Sequence record: PZ344858.1
Reading direction: 5' to 3' (one strand)
Source: a phage
DNA length: 38,561 bases
How positions within the stretch are numbered: position 1 is the first letter of the stretch; each line of letters starts with the position of its first letter. Below are positions 2,838 through 21,394 of this stretch, in pieces. The position numbers and the translations under genes are program-made. Below the pieces are notes generated by a model. The model searched no databases. It was not told where the DNA came from and worked only from the letters and a program-made list of their open reading frames with translations.

Positions 2838-3076
2838 GGTCTTCCTGACCGACTGACGGCTCACCGAGGGATTCAGCGGTATGATTGCATCACACCACTT
2901 CATCCCTATAGAGTCAAGTCCTAAGGTATGCCCATAAAGAGCCTCTAATGGTCTATCCTAAGGTCTATACCTAAAGATAGGCCATCCTATCAGTGTCACC
3001 TAAAGAGAGGCTTAGAGAGGGCCTAAGGAGTCCCTAGAGGGTCCTTTAAAATATACCATAAAAATCTGAGTGACTA

Positions 3077-3221
3077 TCTCACAGTGTACGGACCTAAAGT
3101 TCCCCCATAGGGGTACCTAAAGCCCAGCCAATCACCTAAAGTCAACCTTCGGTTGACCTTGAGGGTTCCCTAGGGGTTGGGATGACCCTTGGGGTTTACC
3201 TTTGAGTGTCTCCTTGTCCCT
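3077..3221. repeat. Terminal repeat (direct terminal redundancy), present once in this circular permutation
   Basis: Begins tctcacagtgtacggacctaaag, the T7 left-end sequence as recalled; bounded by right-end unique sequence upstream and left-end unique sequence downstream; boundaries approximate. Confidence 0.5.
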
Positions 3222-3226
3222 ATCTG

Positions 3227-3360
3227 TTCAGTCTCCTAAAGTATCCTCCTAAAGTCCATCATCAAGCCAACACCAAAAGAATAACCTTAAAGACCCATCA
3301 AGTCAATCCCTATCTTAAAGATAATCCTAACGACCATCCTAACGACCATCCTAAAGCTGC
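3227..3360. repeat. Left-end array of short CCTAAAG/CTTAAAG-type direct repeats, including tandem atcctaacgacc x2
   Basis: cctaaag at about 3234, 3248 and 3350; atcctaacgacc repeated at 3324-3335 and 3336-3347; related copies also in the right end (about 2608, 2968, 2998) and inside the terminal repeat. Confidence 0.5.
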
Positions 3361-3415
3361 CTCGTTGTTACCTATAAAGAGATTATCTTTAATCATTGTC
3401 TTTAATCACTCCCAT

Positions 3416-3438
3416 TAATTCGACTCACTAAAGGGAGA
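3416..3438 (+). promoter_or_regulatory. T7-RNAP-type promoter at the left end (phiOL-like)
   Basis: taattcgactcactaaagggaga; 21/23 match to consensus TAATACGACTCACTATAGGGAGA; predicted +1 G at 3433. Confidence 0.7.
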
Positions 3439-3496
3439 TAAGACTACTTAAAGAGGACCAAAGAGAGAGATTAATCAAAATAATTTTAAAAGAGTA

Positions 3497-3526
3497 TTGA
3501 CTTAAAGGGTCCTACCGGTTTACTAT
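3497..3526 (+). promoter_or_regulatory. Host sigma70-type early promoter (A1-like)
   Basis: -35 ttgact at 3497-3502; -10-like tactat 17-18 bp downstream. Confidence 0.55.
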
Positions 3527-3625
3527 TCATCTCGTCAACGGGACAACGGCCCAAAAGCCACTCCCTGAGATACCGGGGTCAACCGGATAAGTAGACAGCC
3601 TGATAAGTCATACGAAAACCAGGCA

Positions 3626-3655
3626 TTGACAACACGCAGTAACATGCAGTAAGAT
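3626..3655 (+). promoter_or_regulatory. Host sigma70-type early promoter (A2-like)
   Basis: -35 ttgaca at 3626-3631; 18 bp spacer; -10 taagat at 3650-3655. Confidence 0.7.
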
Positions 3656-3731
3656 ACACAGCGTCAACACGGTAGCACAGTGTCTTCTAGGTGACTTAAG
3701 CGCACCACGGCACATAAGGTGAAACAAACGG

Positions 3732-3760
3732 TTGACAACATGCAGTAAACACGGTACGAT
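3732..3760 (+). promoter_or_regulatory. Host sigma70-type early promoter (A3-like)
   Basis: -35 ttgaca at 3732-3737; 17 bp spacer; -10 tacgat at 3755-3760. Confidence 0.7.
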
Positions 3761-3878
3761 GTACCACAAGCAGTAAGGGTGTAGGGATAGGAACCGAGAA
3801 ACCTGCCCGTGACCCGCCAAGGATAAGGCACTAGCCATGAGTCGAATTCGGTCACTCATCGCATAAAAGAATAACAGG

Positions 3879-3907
3879 TTGACAGCCTCCTTTAAAAGCT
3901 GTAAGAT
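3879..3907 (+). promoter_or_regulatory. Additional (fourth) sigma70-type early promoter
   Basis: -35 ttgaca at 3879-3884; 17 bp spacer; -10 taagat at 3902-3907; followed by gtaccac as in the A3-like promoter. Confidence 0.55.
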
Positions 3908-4026
3908 GTACCACGAAATGACGGAACAGTGAGTCACCACACTGAAAGGTGATGCGGTCTAACGAAACCTGACCAAAGACGCTCTTTAACAATCTGGTAA
4001 ACGGCTCTTGAGTGTACACACGTAGC

Positions 4027-4070
4027 GGATAACTCAAGGGTATCGCAAGGTGCCCTTTATGATATTCACT
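4027..4070 (+). promoter_or_regulatory. RNase III-type processing hairpin upstream of gene 0.3 (R0.3-like)
   Basis: ggataactcaagggtatcgcaaggtgccctttatgatattcact; same ACTCAAGG...CCTTTATGAT architecture as the other sites. Confidence 0.5.
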
Positions 4071-4094
4071 AATAACTGCACGAGGTAACACAAG

Positions 4095-4457
4095 ATGGCT
4101 ATGTCTAACATGACTTATAACAACGTTTTCGATCACGCTTACGAAATGCTGAAAGAAAACATCCGTTATGATGACATCCGTGACGCTGATGACCTGCACG
4201 ATGCAGTGCATATGGCGGCTGATAATGCTGTTCCGCACTATTACAGCGACGTTTTCAGTGTAATGGCAAGCGAGGGCATTGACCTTGAGTTTGAGGATTC
4301 TGGTCTGATGCCGGACACCAAGGACGTAATCCGTATCCTGCAAGCACGTATCTATGAGCAACTCACAATCGACCTCTGGGAAGACGCTGAGGACTTACTG
4401 AACGAGTATCTTGAGGAAGTCGAAGAGTCAGAAGACTACGAGGAGGAAGAAGAGTAA
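4095..4457 (+). CDS. ocr: Ocr DNA-mimic anti-restriction protein (T7 gp0.3 homolog)
   Basis: 120 aa, highly acidic with C-terminal [11 protein letters not shown]; near-identical to T7 Ocr as recalled; first gene after the early promoters. Confidence 0.95.
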
Positions 4458-4612
4458 TGGCTAACAACACCACGCAATATGGTCTGACCGCTCAAACTGT
4501 ACTGTTTTATAGTGACATGGTGCGCTGTGGCTTTGATTGGTCGCTCGCAATGGAACACCTTAAGGAACTGTACGAAAACAACAAGGCAATAGCCTTGGAG
4601 TCTGCTGAGTGA
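4457..4612 (+). CDS. 0.4: gp0.4-like small protein (FtsZ inhibitor in T7)
   Basis: 51 aa [54 protein letters not shown]; ATG overlaps the ocr stop; RBS gaggagg. Confidence 0.75.
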   Translation: MANNTTQYGLTAQTVLFYSDMVRCGFDWSLAMEHLKELYENNKAIALESAE

Positions 4613-4613
4613 T

Positions 4614-4658
4614 AGGCTCAAGGTCGCTCAATATGAGTGGCCTTTATGATTATCACTT
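4614..4658 (+). promoter_or_regulatory. RNase III-type processing hairpin (R0.5-like, copy 1)
   Basis: ctcaaggtcgctcaatatgagtggcctttatgattatcactt. Confidence 0.55.
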
Positions 4659-4680
4659 AACACGCTATAGGACTAACATC

Positions 4681-4881
4681 ATGAGTAAACTTCTGGCAAC
4701 CTCCAAAATCAAAGGCCAACACACTGTAACTCTGCGTGAGTACGAGCACGGGAAAATGGGTAGCACCTACGTTGTGCGGTACGGTAAACAAGTCACGCAT
4801 TGGGTGAACGAGGTTCTGGCACAGGAGGAATATCAAGCCTGTGTGATACACCAAGCAACCTGCGCTGGCTGGAATGACTGA
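4681..4881 (+). CDS. Hypothetical early protein (66 aa)
   Basis: ORF MSKLLATSKIKGQHTVTLREYEHGK...CAGWND with RBS agga; flanked by two near-identical RNase III-like hairpins; function unknown. Confidence 0.5.
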   Translation: MSKLLATSKIKGQHTVTLREYEHGKMGSTYVVRYGKQVTHWVNEVLAQEEYQACVIHQATCAGWND

Positions 4882-4903
4882 CAACAGCCTTCAAGTCTAC
4901 CCA

Positions 4904-4954
4904 GTGATAAACTCAAGGTCGCTCCTAGCGAGTGGCCTTTATGATTATCACTTT
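4904..4954 (+). promoter_or_regulatory. RNase III-type processing hairpin (R0.5-like, copy 2)
   Basis: gtgataaactcaaggtcgctcctagcgagtggcctttatgattatcacttt; differs from copy 1 mainly in the loop. Confidence 0.55.
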
Positions 4955-4973
4955 ACGTATGGGAGTAATGTAT

Positions 4974-5102
4974 ATGCTTACTATCGGTCTACTCACCGCT
5001 CTGGGTCTAGCTGTAGGCGCATCCTTTGGGAAGTCCTTGGGTGTAGCTGTAGGCTCTTACTTGGTCGCTTGTATCATTACGGGAGCACTGCGCAAATGCT
5101 GA
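4974..5102 (+). CDS. Small hydrophobic protein (42 aa), putative membrane peptide
   Basis: MLTIGLLTALGLAVGASFGKSLGVAVGSYLVACIITGALRKC; RBS gggag; below the ORF-track cut-off; identity with a T7 gene not established. Confidence 0.4.
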   Translation: MLTIGLLTALGLAVGASFGKSLGVAVGSYLVACIITGALRKC

Positions 5103-5233
5103 AATACTACGTTATGCCCATCCACACCAAGAACGGTGCTACAGTTTGCACACCTGATGGCTTCGCAATGAAACAACGAATCGAACGCCTTAAGCGCGAA
5201 CTGCGCACCAATCGCAAGCTCAACAACATCTAA
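5096..5233 (+). CDS. 0.6: gp0.6-like small protein
   Basis: 45 aa MLKYYVMPIHTKNGATVCTPDGFAMKQRIERLKRELRTNRKLNNI; matches the T7 gp0.6A N-terminus as recalled; start chosen by homology within ORF 4874-5233. Confidence 0.6.
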   Translation: MLKYYVMPIHTKNGATVCTPDGFAMKQRIERLKRELRTNRKLNNI

Positions 5234-5269
5234 ATCTAATTTTCATATTGACACTGGAGAATACACAAA

Positions 5270-6349
5270 GTGAACGCTATCGACATCATGAACGCTATCG
5301 ACGCAATCAAAGCACTGCCAATCTGTGAACTTGATAAGCGTCAAAGTATGCTCATTGATTTACTGGTCGAGATGGTCAACAACGAAACGTGTGACGGTGA
5401 AATCACCAAGCTGGATAAGCCGCTTGAATATCAAGACTGGTGGACTACCTTAAGGTGCCTCACCACTGACGCTGGCTTCACGATGCTCGGTAATGGTCAC
5501 TTCTCCGCTGCATATAGTCACCCACTGCTGCCTAACAGAGTGATTAAGGTGGGCTTTAAGAAAGAGGATTCAGGCGCTGCGTATATCGCATTCTGCCGCA
5601 TGTATCAGGGTCGCGCTGGTATCCCTAACGTCTACGATGTTCAACGCCATGCAGGCTGCTATACGGTGGTTCTTGATGCTCTGAATGAATGTGAGCGAGA
5701 TGATAACTATGAGCACGACAAATACGCTGAGATTGCAAGCGACATCATTGACTGCAACTCTGATATGCACGATTGGCGTGGCGGATGGGTTGGGGAGTTC
5801 GTCGAAACTTGCAAACTAATCCGCAAGTTCTTTGAGGGCATCGCTTCGTTCGACATGCACAGCGGGAACATCATGTTCGACGATAATGACGTACCGTACA
5901 TTACCGACCCGGTGTCATTCTCACAGAAGAAAGACGGTGGCGCTTTCAGCATGGACCCTGAGGAACTCATCAAGGAAGTCGAGGAAGTCGCACGACAGAA
6001 AGAAATTGACCGCGCCAAGGAGCGTAAAGAACGCCATGAGGGGCGCTTAGAAGCTCGCAGAATGAAACGCCGTAACCGTAAGGCTCGCAAAGCACACCGC
6101 GCTAAGCGTGAAAGGATGATTGCTGCGTGGCGCATGGTTGAGCGTAAAGAACGTCGTAACCATGAGGTAGCTGTAGATGTACTAGGAAGGACCAATAACG
6201 CTATGCTCTGGGCGCACATGTTCGCTGGGGACTTTAAGGCGCTTGAGGAACGAATCGCAGCGCACTGGTTCCAAGCTGACCGCATGGCTATCGCTAATGG
6301 TCTTCCGCTAAACATTGATAAGAAACTGGACGCAATGCTAATGGGATGA
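5270..6349 (+). CDS. 0.7: Serine/threonine protein kinase and host-transcription shut-off protein (T7 gp0.7 homolog)
   Basis: 359 aa, GTG start with RBS ggag; strong similarity to T7 gp0.7 including the arginine/lysine-rich C-terminal region. Confidence 0.9.
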
Positions 6350-6364
6350 TAGTCTTATCTTACA

Positions 6365-6393
6365 GGTCATCTGCGGGTGGCCTGAAATAGATA
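6365..6393 (+). promoter_or_regulatory. Putative RNase III-type hairpin upstream of gene 1 (R1-like)
   Basis: caggtcatctgcgggtggcctg imperfect hairpin in the 0.7-1 intergenic region. Confidence 0.35.
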
Positions 6394-6419
6394 CGATTAC
6401 TGACCGAAAGAGGTACAAA

Positions 6420-9071
6420 ATGAGCACGATTAACATCGCTAAGAACGATTTCTCTGACATCGAACTGGCTGCTATCCCGTTCAATACTCTGGCTGACCAC
6501 TATGGTGAGCGCCTAGCTCGCGAGCAGTTGGCCCTTGAACATGAGTCTTACGAGATGGGCGAGGCACGTTTCCGCAAGATGTTTGAGCGTCAACTTAAGG
6601 CCGGTGAGGTTGCAGACAATGCGGCTGCTAAACCACTGATTACTACTCTGCTGCCTAAGATGGTTACACGCATCAACGACTGGTTTGAGGAAGTGAAGGC
6701 TAAGCGCGGCAAACGTCCAACCGCTTTCCAGTTCCTGCAAGGAATCAAGCCGGAATCTGTAGCGTATATCACCATCAAGACTACCCTTGCTTGTCTGACG
6801 AGCGTGGACAATACAACCGTTCAGGCTGTAGCAAGCGCCATCGGACGGGCTATCGAGGAAGAAGCTCGCTTCGGTCGAATCCGTGACCTAGAAGCTAAGC
6901 ACTTCAAGAAAAACGTTGAGGAACAACTCAATAAGCGCGTAGGGCATGTCTACAAGAAAGCATTCATGCAAGTAGTCGAGGCCGATATGCTCTCAAAGGG
7001 TCTACTCGGTGGCGAGGCGTGGTCTACATGGCACAAGGAAGACTCCATTCACGTAGGTGTGCGCTGCATTGAGATGCTCATTGAGTCAACCGGAATGGTT
7101 AGCTTGCACCGCCAAAATGCTGGCGTAGTGGGCCAAGACTCTGAGACTATCGAACTGGCACACGAATACGCTGAGGCTATCGCAACACGGGCTGGGGCAC
7201 TGGCGGGTATCTCTCCGATGTATCAGCCTTGCATAGTACCGCCTAAACCTTGGACTGGTGTAACTGGTGGCGGATACTGGGCTAACGGTCGCCGTCCGCT
7301 GGTACTGGTACGCACCCACAGCAAGAAGGCACTGATGCGCTACGAAGATGTTTACATGCCTGAGGTATACAAGGCGATCAACATTGCGCAAAACACCGCT
7401 TGGAAAATCAACAAGAAAGTCCTAGCGGTCGCCAACGTAATCACCAAGTGGAAGCACTGCCCGGTCGAGGACATCCCAGCGATTGAACGTGAAGAACTCC
7501 CGATGAAACCGGAAGACATCGACACGAATCCTGAGGCGCTCACCACTTGGAAACGTGCCGCTGCCGCTGTGTATCGTAAGGACAAGGCCCGTAAGTCTCG
7601 CCGCATAAGCCTTGAGTTCATGCTTGAGCAAGCCAATAAGTTTGCTAACCGTAAGGCCATCTGGTTCCCTTACAACATGGACTGGCGCGGTCGCGTGTAC
7701 GCTGTGTCAATGTTCAATCCGCAAGGTAACGACATGACCAAAGGACTGCTAACACTGGCTAAAGGTAAACCAATCGGCAAGGAAGGATTCTACTGGCTGA
7801 AAATCCACGGGGCAAACTGCGCGGGAGTTGATAAGGTTCCATTCCCTGAGCGCATCAAGTTCATTGAGGACAACCACGATAACATCATGGCGTGCGCTAA
7901 GTCCCCACTGGAGAACACTTGGTGGGCTGAGCAAGATTCTCCGTTCTGCTTCCTCGCGTTCTGCTTTGAGTACGCTGGGGTACAGCACCACGGCCTGAGC
8001 TACAACTGCTCGCTGCCATTGGCTTTCGATGGGTCTTGCTCCGGTATCCAGCACTTCTCCGCGATGCTCCGCGATGAGGTGGGTGGCCGTGCTGTTAACC
8101 TGCTGCCTAGCGAAACCGTTCAGGACATCTACGGGATTGTTGCCAAGAAAGTCAACGAGATTCTGCAAGCTGATGCAATCAACGGTACCGATAACGAAGT
8201 GATTACCGTGACCGATGAGAACACTGGTGAAATCTCTGAGAAAGTCAAGCTGGGCACTAAAGCACTGGCTGGTCAATGGTTGGCCTACGGTGTGACTCGT
8301 AGCGTAACTAAGCGTTCAGTCATGACTCTGGCCTATGGCTCCAAAGAGTTCGGCTTCCGCCAGCAAGTCCTTGAGGACACCATACAGCCAGCTATTGATT
8401 CAGGAAAAGGCCTGATGTTCACGCAACCGAATCAAGCTGCTGGGTATATGGCTAAGCTGATTTGGGAGTCAGTGAGTGTTACCGTAGTGGCTGCTGTAGA
8501 GGCCATGAACTGGCTTAAGTCTGCTGCTAAGCTGCTGGCTGCTGAGGTCAAAGATAAGAAGACTGGTGAGATTCTTCGCAAGCGTTGCGCAGTGTATTGG
8601 GTAACTCCTGATGGCTTCCCTGTGTGGCAAGAATACAAGAAGCCAATTCAGACTCGCTTGAACTTGATGTTCCTCGGTCAGTTCCGCTTACAGCCGACCA
8701 TCAACACCAACAAGGACAGCGAGATTGATGCTCATAAGCAGGAGTCTGGTATCGCTCCTAACTTTGTGCACAGCCAAGACGGTAGCCACCTACGTAAGAC
8801 TGTAGTGTGGGCGCACGAGAAGTACGGAATCGAATCTTTTGCACTGATTCATGACTCCTTCGGGACCATTCCGGCTGATGCTGCCAACCTATTCAAGGCT
8901 GTTCGTGAGACTATGGTTGACACCTACGAGTCCTGCGATGTACTTGCAGACTTCTACAACCAGTTCGCTGACCAGTTACATGAATCTCAACTGGATAAAA
9001 TGCCAGCACTTCCGGCTAAAGGTAACTTGAATTTACGAGACATCTTAGAGTCAGACTTCGCGTTTGCGTAA
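6420..9071 (+). CDS. 1: Single-subunit DNA-directed RNA polymerase (T7 gp1 homolog)
   Basis: 883 aa, the same length as T7 RNAP and near-identical along the whole protein as recalled. Confidence 0.98.
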   Translation: MSTINIAKNDFSDIELAAIPFNTLADHYGERLAREQLALEHESYEMGEARFRKMFERQLKAGEVADNAAAKPLITTLLPKMVTRINDWFEEVKAKRGKRPTAFQFLQGIKPESVAYITIKTTLACLTSVDNTTVQAVASAIGRAIEEEARFGRIRDLEAKHFKKNVEEQLNKRVGHVYKKAFMQVVEADMLSKGLLGGEAWSTWHKEDSIHVGVRCIEMLIESTGMVSLHRQNAGVVGQDSETIELAHEYAEAIATRAGALAGISPMYQPCIVPPKPWTGVTGGGYWANGRRPLVLVRTHSKKALMRYEDVYMPEVYKAINIAQNTAWKINKKVLAVANVITKWKHCPVEDIPAIEREELPMKPEDIDTNPEALTTWKRAAAAVYRKDKARKSRRISLEFMLEQANKFANRKAIWFPYNMDWRGRVYAVSMFNPQGNDMTKGLLTLAKGKPIGKEGFYWLKIHGANCAGVDKVPFPERIKFIEDNHDNIMACAKSPLENTWWAEQDSPFCFLAFCFEYAGVQHHGLSYNCSLPLAFDGSCSGIQHFSAMLRDEVGGRAVNLLPSETVQDIYGIVAKKVNEILQADAINGTDNEVITVTDENTGEISEKVKLGTKALAGQWLAYGVTRSVTKRSVMTLAYGSKEFGFRQQVLEDTIQPAIDSGKGLMFTQPNQAAGYMAKLIWESVSVTVVAAVEAMNWLKSAAKLLAAEVKDKKTGEILRKRCAVYWVTPDGFPVWQEYKKPIQTRLNLMFLGQFRLQPTINTNKDSEIDAHKQESGIAPNFVHSQDGSHLRKTVVWAHEKYGIESFALIHDSFGTIPADAANLFKAVRETMVDTYESCDVLADFYNQFADQLHESQLDKMPALPAKGNLNLRDILESDFAFA

Positions 9072-9075
9072 CGTC

Positions 9076-9098
9076 AAATTAATATCACTATAGGGAAG
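9076..9098 (+). promoter_or_regulatory. Degenerate T7-type promoter (phi1.1 position)
   Basis: aaattaatatcactatagggaag: perfect -8 to +4 (TCACTATAGGGA) but the upstream CGAC core (-12 to -9) is missing. Confidence 0.35.
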
Positions 9099-9176
9099 AC
9101 CTTAAGGTTTAACTTTAAGACCCTTAAGTGTTAATTAAAGATTTAAATTAAAGACTACTAAGAGAGGACTTTAAGT

Positions 9177-9305
9177 ATGCGTAACTTCGAAAAGATGACC
9201 AAACGTTCTAACCGTAACGCTCATGACTTCGAGGCAACCAAGGGTCGTAAGTTGAATAAGACAAAGCGTGATCGCTCACACAAGCGTAGCTGGGAGGGTC
9301 AGTAA
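9177..9305 (+). CDS. 1.1: gp1.1-like small basic protein
   Basis: 42 aa MRNFEKMTKRSNRNAHDFEATKGRKLNKTKRDRSHKRSWEGQ; RBS agagagga; matches T7 gp1.1 as recalled. Confidence 0.75.
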   Translation: MRNFEKMTKRSNRNAHDFEATKGRKLNKTKRDRSHKRSWEGQ

Positions 9306-9306
9306 G

Positions 9307-9564
9307 ATGGGACGTTTATACAGTGGGAACCTGAATGACTTCAAGGATGCTTGCAACAGGCTCTACCAGTTGGACCTTGCTGTTATAGCCGTTGAGCAGG
9401 AAGGTTCGCCAAACATAAAGGCAACCATGTACCTTCGGATTGAAGATCGTACTGGTCGCATAGTTGCTCAGGAAGAGATTCACCACTGCGACGAAGATAT
9501 TCTGTACAATATGGGAACATCTTGGTTGAACCGTATGTACGACCAGTTGAAGGACTGGAAGTAA
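9307..9564 (+). CDS. 1.2: gp1.2-like protein (host dGTPase inhibitor in T7)
   Basis: 85 aa starting MGRLYSGNL with RBS gggaggg; C-terminus NRMYDQLKDWK matches T7 gp1.2; the ORF-track start at 9268 is an upstream extension. Confidence 0.85.
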   Translation: MGRLYSGNLNDFKDACNRLYQLDLAVIAVEQEGSPNIKATMYLRIEDRTGRIVAQEEIHHCDEDILYNMGTSWLNRMYDQLKDWK

Positions 9565-9584
9565 TACGACTCACTAAAGGGACA
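9562..9584 (+). promoter_or_regulatory. T7-type promoter (phi1.3)
   Basis: taatacgactcactaaagggaca; overlaps the gene 1.2 stop codon. Confidence 0.85.
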
Positions 9585-9586
9585 AT

Positions 9587-9620
9587 GCTTAAGGTCGCTC
9601 CAACTGAGTGGCCTTAGTCG
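9587..9620 (+). promoter_or_regulatory. RNase III-type processing hairpin (R1.3-like)
   Basis: cttaaggtcgctccaactgagtggccttag, imperfect stem with internal mismatch. Confidence 0.5.
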
Positions 9621-9644
9621 TTTAACCGATAGGAGATACTAACC

Positions 9645-10733
9645 ATGATGAACATTAAGACCAACCCATTCAAAGCCGTGTCTTTCGTAGAGTCTGCCAT
9701 TAAGAAAGCTCTCGATAACGCTGGGTATCTTATTGCTGACGTTAAATACGATGGTGTACGTGGTAACATCTGCGTAGACAATACCGCTAACAGTTGCTGG
9801 CTCTCTCGTGTATCTAAACCGATTCCGGCACTGGAGCACTTAAACGGATTTGATGTTCGCTGGAAGCGTCTACTCAACGATGACCGTTGCTTCTACAAAG
9901 ATGGCTTTATGCTTGATGGTGAACTCATGGTCAAAGGTGTAGACTTCAACACTGGGTCCGGCCTACTGCGTACCAAGTGGCTCAACAAGAAGAACTTTGA
10001 GTTCGACGTTGGCGGTGTGCCACCACTCAAGGGGTCAAAGGTTGAGTTCGCGTTGGACACCAAACGTCTGAGTGTCAAACTGTATGCTATCCTACCACTG
10101 CACATCGTAGAGTCTGGGGAAGACTGCGACATCATGACACTGCTCATGCAGGAACACGTTAAGAACATGCTGCCTCTGCTACAGGAATACTTCCCTGAAA
10201 TCGAATGGCAAGCGGCTGAGTCTTACGAGGTCTACGATATGGTAGAACTACAGCAACTGTATGAGAAGAAGCGCGAAGAAGGACATGAAGGTCTAATCGT
10301 GAAAGACCCTATGGGCATCTACAAGCGAGGTAAGAAGTCCGGATGGTGGAAAATGAAGCCAGAGAACGAGGCTGACGGTATTATCCAAGGTCTGGTATGG
10401 GGTACGGAAGGTCTGTCTAATGAGGGCAAAGTGATTGGCTTTGAGGTGCTCCTTGAGAGTGGTCGTGTAGTAAACGCCACAAACATCTCTCGCGCCTTAA
10501 TGGACGAGTTCACAGCCGTGGTAAAAGAGGCCACTTTGAAACAGTGGGGATTCTTTAGCCCGTATGGGATTGGTGACAACGATGCTTGCACCTTAAATCC
10601 CTACAATGGATGGGCCTGCCAGATTAGCTACATGGAGGAAACACCTGATGGCTCTCTGCGTCACCCATCGTTCGTATGTTTCCGTGGTACTGAGGACAAC
10701 CCTCAAGAGTATAAGGAGACACTGTATGCTTAA
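9645..10733 (+). CDS. 1.3: ATP-dependent DNA ligase (T7 gp1.3 homolog)
   Basis: 362 aa; adenylation-site motif region IADVKYDGVRG; RBS aggag. Confidence 0.95.
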   Translation: MMNIKTNPFKAVSFVESAIKKALDNAGYLIADVKYDGVRGNICVDNTANSCWLSRVSKPIPALEHLNGFDVRWKRLLNDDRCFYKDGFMLDGELMVKGVDFNTGSGLLRTKWLNKKNFEFDVGGVPPLKGSKVEFALDTKRLSVKLYAILPLHIVESGEDCDIMTLLMQEHVKNMLPLLQEYFPEIEWQAAESYEVYDMVELQQLYEKKREEGHEGLIVKDPMGIYKRGKKSGWWKMKPENEADGIIQGLVWGTEGLSNEGKVIGFEVLLESGRVVNATNISRALMDEFTAVVKEATLKQWGFFSPYGIGDNDACTLNPYNGWACQISYMEETPDGSLRHPSFVCFRGTEDNPQEYKETLYA

Positions 10734-16366: not shown

Positions 16367-16636
16367 ATGACACAAGTAGCTGAAACTATCCGTCTATCCG
16401 ATACCGCCGACCAGTGGAACCGTCGAGTTCACATTAACGTTCGTAACGGAAAGGCTACCATGGTTTACCGTTGGAAGGACTCTAAGTCCTCTAAGAATCA
16501 CACTCAGCGTATGACGTTGACGGACGAGCAAGCACTGCGTCTGGTCAATGCGCTTACCAAAGCTTCCGTGACTGCAATTCATGAGGCTGGTCGCGTTGAT
16601 GAAGCTATGGCTATCCTCGACAAGATTGATAGCTAA
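16367..16636 (+). CDS. 4.5: gp4.5-like protein
   Basis: 89 aa ORF with RBS caggaga; size and position as T7 gp4.5. Confidence 0.8.
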   Translation: MTQVAETIRLSDTADQWNRRVHINVRNGKATMVYRWKDSKSSKNHTQRMTLTDEQALRLVNALTKASVTAIHEAGRVDEAMAILDKIDS

Positions 16637-16640
16637 GAGT

Positions 16641-16680
16641 GGTATACTCAAGGTCGCCCAAGTGGTGGCCTTCATGAATA
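16641..16680 (+). promoter_or_regulatory. RNase III-type processing hairpin (R4.7-like)
   Basis: ggtatactcaaggtcgcccaagtggtggccttcatgaata. Confidence 0.5.
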
Positions 16681-16703
16681 CTATTCGACTCACTATAGGA
16701 GAT
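16681..16703 (+). promoter_or_regulatory. T7-type promoter (phi4.7)
   Basis: ctattcgactcactataggagat; core -12 to +2 conserved, upstream AT-rich region variant. Confidence 0.75.
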
Positions 16704-21226: not shown

Positions 21227-21327
21227 CATATATTGGTATTGGCCTTTGTGTTATCGGAATGGGCCTCATTGCGTGGGGCCTTTGGGACTTAGCCCAAATA
21301 ATCAAGAAGATACACGACTATAAGTGA
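21214..21327 (+). CDS. 6.3: gp6.3-like small hydrophobic protein
   Basis: 37 aa from GTG with RBS aaggag 8 nt upstream: VETVAYIGIGLCVIGMGLIAWGLWDLAQIIKKIHDYK; size equals T7 gp6.3. Confidence 0.5.
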   Translation: METVAYIGIGLCVIGMGLIAWGLWDLAQIIKKIHDYK

Positions 21328-21365
21328 TAAACTCAAGGTCCAGGGGCCTTTATGATTATTACTTT
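21324..21365 (+). promoter_or_regulatory. RNase III-type processing hairpin (R6.5-like), without an associated T7 promoter
   Basis: gtgataaactcaaggtccaggggcctttatgattattacttt. Confidence 0.5.
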
Positions 21366-21394
21366 AAGATTTAACTCTAAGAGGAATCTTTATC

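Follow-up and report, generated by a model that had tools for sequence, protein, structure and literature searches.

The early region of phage T7 is one transcript of the host RNA polymerase that is cut by ribonuclease III (RNase III) at each R site. In the phage genome PZ344858.1 (38,561 nucleotides [nt]; this whole stretch of DNA was analyzed and is referred to as the window), the junction between the early genes 0.4 and 0.5 holds two nearly identical hairpins of the type of the T7 site R0.5 and, between them, an open reading frame (ORF) of 66 amino acids (aa). What is this ORF, and how did it come to be bracketed by two copies of what appears to be one RNA-processing site? A preliminary description, made from the DNA letters without database searches, took it for an unassigned early gene that had arrived as a cassette by recombination between RNase III sites. 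We find instead that the ORF is gene 0.45, a member of phrog_6500 that is already named in phiYeO3-12, phiSG-JL2, and 13a, and we consider it quite probable that the module as a whole is a gene 0.45 early cassette between two R0.5-type RNase III hairpins, which would be expressed through processing at these hairpins and would have originated by recombination.

Two R0.5-Type Hairpins in a Direct Repeat

A repeat search of the window revealed a direct repeat of 75 nt in two copies that are 81% identical and have a spacing of 295 nt (table 1). Each copy reaches ~27 nt upstream of a hairpin; in copy 1 this part belongs to the 3' end of gene 0.4, and in copy 2 it is a non-coding relic of that end. 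The hairpins that had been placed at 4614-4658 and 4904-4954 are therefore present, but the repeated unit extends beyond both of these spans. As had been noted, the hairpins differ mainly in the loop (AATAT vs. CTAGC), and the blocks CTCAAGGTCGCTC and GAGTGGCCTTTATGATTATCACTT are common to both repeat copies with no differences. Each hairpin consists of a lower stem, an internal loop, and an upper stem, and none of 200 shuffles was equally stable.

Hairpin B has only one mismatch to T7 R0.5 over ~52 nt and occupies the same site directly upstream of gene 0.5, and hairpin A shares both stems with T7 R0.5 and has a different loop. Because the repeat is homologous to the T7 R0.5 site, its origin by chance can be excluded. 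Homologous stem-loops are annotated in phiYeO3-12 as "putative RNase III site R0.45" and in T3 as "RNase III recognition site R0.5." We aligned 28 homologous hairpins from the window and 13 related phage genomes and found that 96.2% of the cells in this alignment form standard pairs, with changes on both sides at five pairs (25 cells). Neither the paired fraction nor the covariation score was reached in any of 500 shuffles, and when the 3' partners were shifted by 1-3 columns pairing fell to 31-50%. A covariance model built from the 28 hairpins returned B and A as the top two matches in the whole window. An Rfam scan of positions 3000-10500 at E values up to 1 returned no family for these hairpins. 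Judged by their homology to the T7, T3, and phiYeO3-12 stem-loops, hairpins A and B are predicted to be T7-group RNase III processing sites of the R0.5/R0.45 type, in agreement with the preliminary description. T7 and T3 have one copy of R0.5 at this junction, whereas the window phage has two and the phages WW2 and EG1 have three.

Gene 0.45 Is a Conserved Protein-Coding Gene

The 66-aa ORF has its own ribosome-binding site, as had been proposed, and is far from unassigned. A tblastn search found gene 0.45 in 159 phage records, with a query coverage of at least 80% in 156 of them, and the product is annotated as "gp0.45" or "putative 0.45 protein" in phiSG-JL2, phiYeO3-12, and 13a. The gp0.45 sequence is 100% identical to its counterparts in Yersinia phage WW2 and Escherichia phage EG1, 85% identical to that of phiYeO3-12, and 72% identical to that of 13a, and the gene is spread over Teseptimavirus, Teetrevirus, and Klebsiella phages. 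It has been named since the annotation of phiYeO3-12, and the arrangement 0.4-hairpin-0.45-hairpin-0.5 is likewise already in GenBank; sequences deposited with this order are CICC 80001, 3A_8767, and an IMG/VR contig.

Compared with 16 homologs, gene 0.45 of the window has 11-51 nt differences that result in 0-12 amino-acid differences, and the ratio of nonsynonymous to synonymous substitution rates (dN/dS) is 0-0.19 in the homologs with a usable dS estimate; all 11 nt differences from WW2 are synonymous. Gene 0.45 is thus a real protein-coding gene under strong purifying selection. The leader ATAGGACTAAC...ATG, which includes the AGGA motif, precedes gene 0.45 in every hairpin-led context (phiYeO3-12, WW2, EG1, P694, and others). 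Two longer readings of the frame, of 82 aa from an ATG at 4633 and of 90 aa from a GTG at 4609, both of which start inside hairpin A, were rejected since the extension is not conserved; only the 66-aa frame is present in WW2, EG1, and P483.

The module is extra relative to T7 and T3, as the preliminary description held: each of these phages has one hairpin at the site and no 66-aa ORF, so that gene 0.45 is not a known T7 gene flanked in T7 by two hairpins at the same spacing. The 42-aa ORF that follows the second hairpin is hydrophobic as described and starts at 4974, one base off the position that had been implied. By its sequence it is the T7 gene 0.5 homolog, lying directly downstream of R0.5 as in T7, and forms no part of the extra module.

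Gene Order and Hairpins in Related Loci

We mapped ORFs and hairpins in ~20 related loci. T7 has the order hairpin, ocr-0.4, hairpin, 0.5, with one hairpin at the 0.4-0.5 junction and without the 66-aa ORF, and the window phage, CICC 80001, L011, and 3A_8767 have the T7 order plus one hairpin-0.45 unit. WW2 and EG1 have, stacked before hairpin-0.45, a further unit composed of a hairpin and a gene of 94 aa (phrog_9817), which gives three R0.5-type hairpins in a row. The order hairpin, SAMase, hairpin, 0.45, 0.6 is found in phiYeO3-12, L012, and P483; T3 has this order without 0.45, and P694 has SAMase, hairpin, ocr-0.4, hairpin, 0.45. In HZ2R8, a 147-aa ORF resembling an HNH endonuclease follows the second hairpin and replaces gene 0.5. 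In the Klebsiella phages sampled, 0.45 adjoins a SAMase-like gene without a hairpin.

Among the closest known counterparts of the module are the named 0.45 genes. Those of phiYeO3-12, phiSG-JL2, and 13a resemble that of the window in belonging to phrog_6500, in a length of 66 aa, in the leader, in the RNase III-type hairpin immediately upstream, and in their class I position. The contexts differ: gene 0.45 of the window lies between T7-type genes 0.4 and 0.5 and has a second hairpin downstream, whereas in phiYeO3-12 it follows SAMase and continues directly into gene 0.6 without a hairpin in between, and in 13a ocr comes after it and an R0.3-type hairpin stands on each side, the second of these having an R0.5-like lower stem and an R0.3 upper stem.

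The sequences around and within the hairpins follow their neighbors. The 5' flank and the 5' lower stem vary with the upstream neighbor: they read CTGAGTGATAG where this is gene 0.4, GTAAGTG where it is SAMase, and CCCAGTGATAA where it is the relic. On the 3' side, the flank varies with the downstream gene and reads CACTTAACA if 0.45 comes next and CACTTTAC if 0.5 does. The loop tracks either side: it is AATAT after gene 0.4 whether the next gene is 0.45 or the 94-aa gene, and CCTTGTG before 0.45 whether the preceding gene is SAMase or the 94-aa gene. Because the two flanks track different neighbors and the loop tracks either, the crossovers appear to have fallen inside the hairpin, on either side of the loop.

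A second series of differences is found downstream of the 0.45 stop codon. In phiYeO3-12, this stop codon and the gene 0.6 start overlap (ATGACTATGATGACGATATTTGTACTCACTG). Three elements come after the stop codon in CICC 80001, HZ2R8, and L011: first GCGCTATTTGTACGCACTGG, which matches the phiYeO3-12 gene 0.6 start at ~15/17 nt; next ATAGCCTTCGAGTCTACCCAGTGATAA, which repeats the final ~27 nt of gene 0.4 in diverged form; and last the hairpin. In the window and L013 the gene 0.6 piece has been lost and only the relic of the gene 0.4 tail is kept, and 3A_8767 and 13a are trimmed further.

Several other features of these loci were recorded during the mapping. The cassette with the 94-aa gene spans L002 806-1222 (WW2), L006 1581-1995 (EG1), L013 1419-1827, and L017 1268-1679, and the 94-aa gene lies upstream of an ocr-like gene in L013 and after gene 0.4 in 64795_ec1. 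In 13a (L005 575-891), the downstream hairpin, whose R0.5-like lower stem is GTGATAAACTCAAG...CATGATTATCAT, contains the 0.45 stop codon within its stem and looks chimeric. The 147-aa ORF of HZ2R8 (MSQQAKTCIACGEFKPL...; L009 2813-3256) resembles, as judged by eye, an HNH-type homing endonuclease. In the Klebsiella loci L014, L015, L016, L018, and L019, gene 0.45 abuts or overlaps the SAMase-like gene and the covariance model finds no RNase III-type hairpin; a 60-aa ORF (MKHYGITQQ...) follows 0.45 in the Klebsiella loci, and L019 apparently has a disrupted 0.45.

Origin of the Module

The series of relics downstream of the 0.45 stop codon fits a route in which the donor would have had the T3/phiYeO3-12-type arrangement of hairpin R0.45, gene 0.45, and gene 0.6. 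The left crossover would have been a homologous recombination within the ~50-nt conserved hairpin, and the right joint an illegitimate join of the first gene 0.6 codons to the last ~27 nt of gene 0.4, by which the gene 0.4 tail would have been duplicated together with R0.5. Later deletions would then have trimmed the relic until the gene 0.6 piece was gone from the window phage. The comparisons of flanks, loops, and relics support arrival as a cassette by recombination at the hairpin. Recombination between two RNase III sites, as it had been pictured in the preliminary description, would consequently apply to the left joint, which lies in the hairpin, but not to the right one, where the join appears illegitimate.

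Some points weigh against this account. The direct repeats would favor deletion as well, and the event could have run in the opposite direction, with 0.45 lost from T7. The Klebsiella phages sampled have 0.45 straight after a SAMase-like gene with no hairpin, and the gene is therefore not obligatorily tied to a hairpin. The gene 0.6 start is matched over a short stretch (~15/17 nt), and RNase III cleavage at both sites of the window is predicted from homology.

The strongest competitor makes the module ancestral in the lineage and has T7 lose 0.45 by homologous recombination between the flanking repeat hairpins. We regard this as unlikely, though it deserves serious weight. Deletion would have an obvious substrate in the 75-nt direct repeats, and the T7 junction looks exactly like a deletion product; as removal of the segment between the repeats would restore a junction like that of T7, some lineages have likely lost the gene. 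The gene 0.6 start relic and the duplicated gene 0.4 tail of the relatives are, however, the footprint of an insertion from another context, and the wide distribution of 0.45 (159 records across Teseptimavirus, Teetrevirus, and Klebsiella phages), which an ancestral module would account for, is accompanied by the presence of the gene at three or more positions relative to 0.3/0.4 in different phages. Gain followed by repeated loss is compatible with both acquisition of the cassette and its loss from T7.

It is very improbable that the repeats act in termination or attenuation, or that they delimit a self-mobile element of the site-specific or homing kind. They are structured and flank a small gene, but no T-run follows either stem, a + strand terminator scan found no terminator at hairpins A and B, and hairpin B is nearly the same as T7 R0.5, which is a classic RNase III site. 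The HNH-like ORF of HZ2R8, recognized by eye, does lie right after the second hairpin; in the window, though, the repeats are direct and not inverted and the cassette has no recombinase or nuclease gene, and the crossover points vary within the hairpin with no one fixed site. Finally, if the gene 0.4 tail and R0.5 had been duplicated locally in tandem, creating a spacer with a spurious or newly arisen ORF, the two copies of tail and hairpin would be explained, but this reading is refuted by full-length homologs in unrelated contexts and distant ones in other phage groups, by strong purifying selection, and by a confident predicted fold.

Acquisition of gene 0.45 by recombination at the hairpin raises a more general reading, to which we give an even chance: T7-group RNase III hairpins may double as portable recombination joints, so that the early region would be an array of hairpin-led, self-insulating cassettes (0.45, the 94-aa gene, ocr-0.4, and SAMase), and homologous recombination in the ~50-nt hairpin would add and remove these, change their order, and stack them. 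We found no description of RNase III sites as recombination joints in the T7 group in the searchable literature, which is a weak negative as older subscription papers are outside its coverage.

Proposed Expression and RNA Processing

Gene 0.45 lies in a class I position: the A1-A3 promoters (3626-3907) precede it and gene 1 follows it, all with the same orientation. A promoter scan found no sigma-70-like site at either hairpin on the + strand or directly before 0.45, and the gene is therefore read as part of the early operon, which is driven, with the 0.45 module included, by the A1-A3 equivalents. The host RNA polymerase would transcribe the whole early operon from A1-A3, and RNase III would cut once per hairpin, on the 3' side of the internal loop. 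By homology to T7, where we take R0.5 to be cut at T7 position 1468, the cuts are predicted near 4647 in hairpin A and 4942 in hairpin B. After a single cut on the 3' side of the internal loop, the upstream RNA keeps the hairpin, which protects its 3' end. The expected product would be a monocistronic 0.45 mRNA of ~295 nt that has its own Shine-Dalgarno sequence and a protective hairpin at its 3' end. The 0.3-0.4 mRNA would keep the 3' end, and the 0.5-0.7 mRNA the 5' end, that they have in T7, and the insert would thus be insulated from its neighbors. Cambray et al. (PMC3643576) employed T7 R0.5 as a "highly processive" RNase III site for insulating and decoupling adjacent reporters, and a single RNase III cut stabilizes RNA whereas a double cut destabilizes it (PMC6993053).

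Family, Fold, and Possible Function of gp0.45

A word-indexed search with gp0.45 returned close relatives only, whereas a profile search of 1.8 billion cluster representatives gave 39 matches. Approximately 35 of these are proteins of 60-90 aa that share the pattern GQ[YH]xVxL ... YxVxYG ... A..EY..C..H...CAG. The other matches include repeat proteins of 357-3076 aa, which were not accepted as homologs: the match is confined to residues 8-38 and covers only two strands. They include P0023 (1700 aa, 8 stretches), P0040 (3076 aa, 11 stretches), and P0031 (357 aa, 4 stretches), their repeat units being of the YTVTF...VNYGAKV type (YTVTFNANGHG...VNYGAKV in P0031), and the resemblance is probably compositional or that of a beta-hairpin.

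An AlphaFold model of gp0.45 based on a 41-sequence alignment has a predicted local distance difference test (pLDDT) score of 92.4 and a predicted template modeling (pTM) score of 0.75; it supersedes a model with 13 close homologs that gave a pLDDT of 45. The model contains strands at residues 2-8, 16-22, 28-34, and 37-41 and a C-terminal helix at residues 44-62 that bears a conserved C-x2-H-x3-C-A-G motif. BFVD holds many similar models, all uncharacterized, from Bordetella, Pseudomonas, Klebsiella, and Escherichia phages including the large phages PBECO4 and RaK2, and relatives of gp0.45 are found in podo-, myo-, and jumbo phages. No characterized relative emerged from the other searches: the 41-member family profile had no matches among PDB sequences at E values up to 10, a Foldseek search of PDB with the model gave nothing below E = 0.7, and Pfam and NCBIfam hold no model for gp0.45. 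The distant homolog P0020 lies on a phage-like contig among unannotated small genes, a neighborhood that gave no functional clue, and the searchable literature holds no functional statement on gp0.45, its sole mention being in a listing of BLAST matches.

Small host-takeover proteins of T7 classes I and II include ocr, gp0.4, gp0.6, gp2, and gp5.5. gp0.45 is like them in being small and non-essential-looking and in being encoded in the early region that is transcribed by the host RNA polymerase, beside an anti-restriction gene, but neither its sequence nor its fold shows a relationship to theirs. Other small T7 class I proteins bind host factors stoichiometrically, and by analogy gp0.45 may, with low confidence, be a stoichiometric binder of a host factor and not an enzyme. 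The new host-interaction factor proposed in the preliminary description is likewise a guess. It seems to us improbable that gp0.45 regulates host or phage nucleic acids (DNA or RNA) by binding them, as a small protein whose fold is of the AP2, integrase-arm, or WGR-like kind. The wider family, whose ~65-aa members have the C-x2-H-x3-C-A-G helix and occur in many unrelated phages, might, as a speculation, represent a host-takeover or counter-defense effector.

Phage Genome and Early-Region Layout

PZ344858.1 is the circularly permuted genome of a T7-type (Teseptimavirus-like) podovirus that has ~94% identity with Yersinia phage vB_YenP_WW2 and ~89% identity with T7 over 24 kb. The window opens in the late region, with a 590-aa terminase-like ORF at 688-2460 and a gp19.5-like 49-aa ORF at 2688-2837, and the left-end promoters come after these; therefore, the physical genome ends must lie around 2850-3500. 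The features of the early region are collected in table 1. Searches of Pfam and NCBIfam returned nothing meaningful for the 66-aa, 42-aa, 51-aa, and 45-aa proteins or for the 94-aa protein of WW2.

Table 1. Features of the early region of PZ344858.1 and the evidence for each
Feature	Position	Strand	Evidence and remarks
Sigma-70 promoter matches, A1/A2/A3 equivalents	3626-3655, 3732-3760, 3879-3907	+	TTGACA, 17-18 nt spacing, 10/12 matches
R0.3-type RNase III hairpin, upstream of gene 0.3	4021-4076	+	Covariance model 62.5 bits; core as T7 R0.3 in alignment
Gene 0.3 (ocr, 120 aa)	4095-4457	+	96% identity to T7 gp0.3 over 103 aa
Gene 0.4 (51 aa)	4457-4612	+	84% identity to T7 gp0.4; phrog_7202
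Direct-repeat copy 1 (last 26 nt of gene 0.4 and hairpin A)	4587-4661	+	Repeat search
Hairpin A, predicted R0.5/R0.45-type RNase III site	4605-4663, paired ~4606-4659	+	-27.1 kcal/mol, z = -4.8; covariance model 77.5 bits
Shine-Dalgarno sequence AGGA of gene 0.45	4669-4672	+	8 nt before ATG; read from sequence
Gene 0.45 (66 aa, ~7.5 kDa)	4681-4881	+	phrog_6500, E 4.5e-44, residues 1-66 on profile positions 1-66 of 66
Direct-repeat copy 2	4882-4956	+	Repeat search
Non-coding relic of gene 0.4 3' end (AGCCTTCAAGTCTACCCAGTGATAA)	4882-4911	+	Aligns with gene 0.4 tail of window and T7
Hairpin B, predicted resident R0.5 RNase III site	4900-4958, paired ~4903-4952	+	-22.1 kcal/mol, z = -4.7; covariance model 80.6 bits
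Gene 0.5 homolog (42 aa, hydrophobic)	4974-5102	+	82% identity to T7 gp0.5 over 45 columns; phrog_16572, E 1.6e-26; grand average of hydropathy (GRAVY) 1.44
Gene 0.6 homolog (45 aa)	5096-5233	+	phrog_8393; 93-100% identity in relatives
Gene 0.7 protein kinase	5270-6349	+	87% identity to T7 gp0.7
Gene 1 RNA polymerase	6420-9071	+	Downstream of 0.45 module, same strand

The covariance model additionally matched four sites on the + strand (143-200, 16635-16691, 21320-21369, and 9591-9615), with scores of 41-53 bits apart from one partial match at 24 bits, and these are presumably R18.5, R4.7, R6.5, and R1.1 or a neighbor. For the R1 site expected before gene 1, the model had no match in the window at E values up to 1. 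At the start of gene 0.7, which is listed with a GTG start at 5270 and has an in-frame ATG at 5288, the exact 12-nt repeat TGAACGCTATCG occurs twice within 5271-5300, 18 nt apart.

Comparison with Early-Gene Shuffling in T4-Type Phages

In T4-type phages, a conserved regulatory motif of ~50 nt named PeSL, which combines a promoter with a terminator stem-loop, lies at the borders of small uncharacterized early genes, and indels between close relatives map to it. The motif is reported to mediate modular shuffling (Arbiol et al. 2010, PMC2839356; Comeau et al. 2014, PMC4122927). The module of the window is similar in that a repeated motif borders small variable early ORFs and indels map to it (~20 loci), and it differs in that the repeat, a hairpin for RNA processing, lies within one operon and contains neither promoter nor terminator. 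By analogy, the 0.45 module would work like a PeSL cassette; because its repeat is without promoter and terminator, we do not regard it as a member of the PeSL family.

Implications for T7-Group Phages

The find is ordinary for this phage group and as it stands matters little. The comparison nevertheless provides a worked example of early-gene swapping at RNase III hairpins in the T7 group, and the RNase III-delimited layout would explain why inserts leave the neighboring mRNAs undisturbed; in phage engineering, a payload could likewise sit between duplicated R0.5 sites. As a conserved and strongly selected early protein with a confident predicted fold, gp0.45 is a candidate for knock-out and for a screen against a panel of defense systems. 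What is most interesting in the remainder is the general pattern of hairpin-led cassettes, together with the orphan fold family of gp0.45. If true, the reading of the hairpins as recombination joints would make them the RNA-processing-site analog of the T4 PeSL system.

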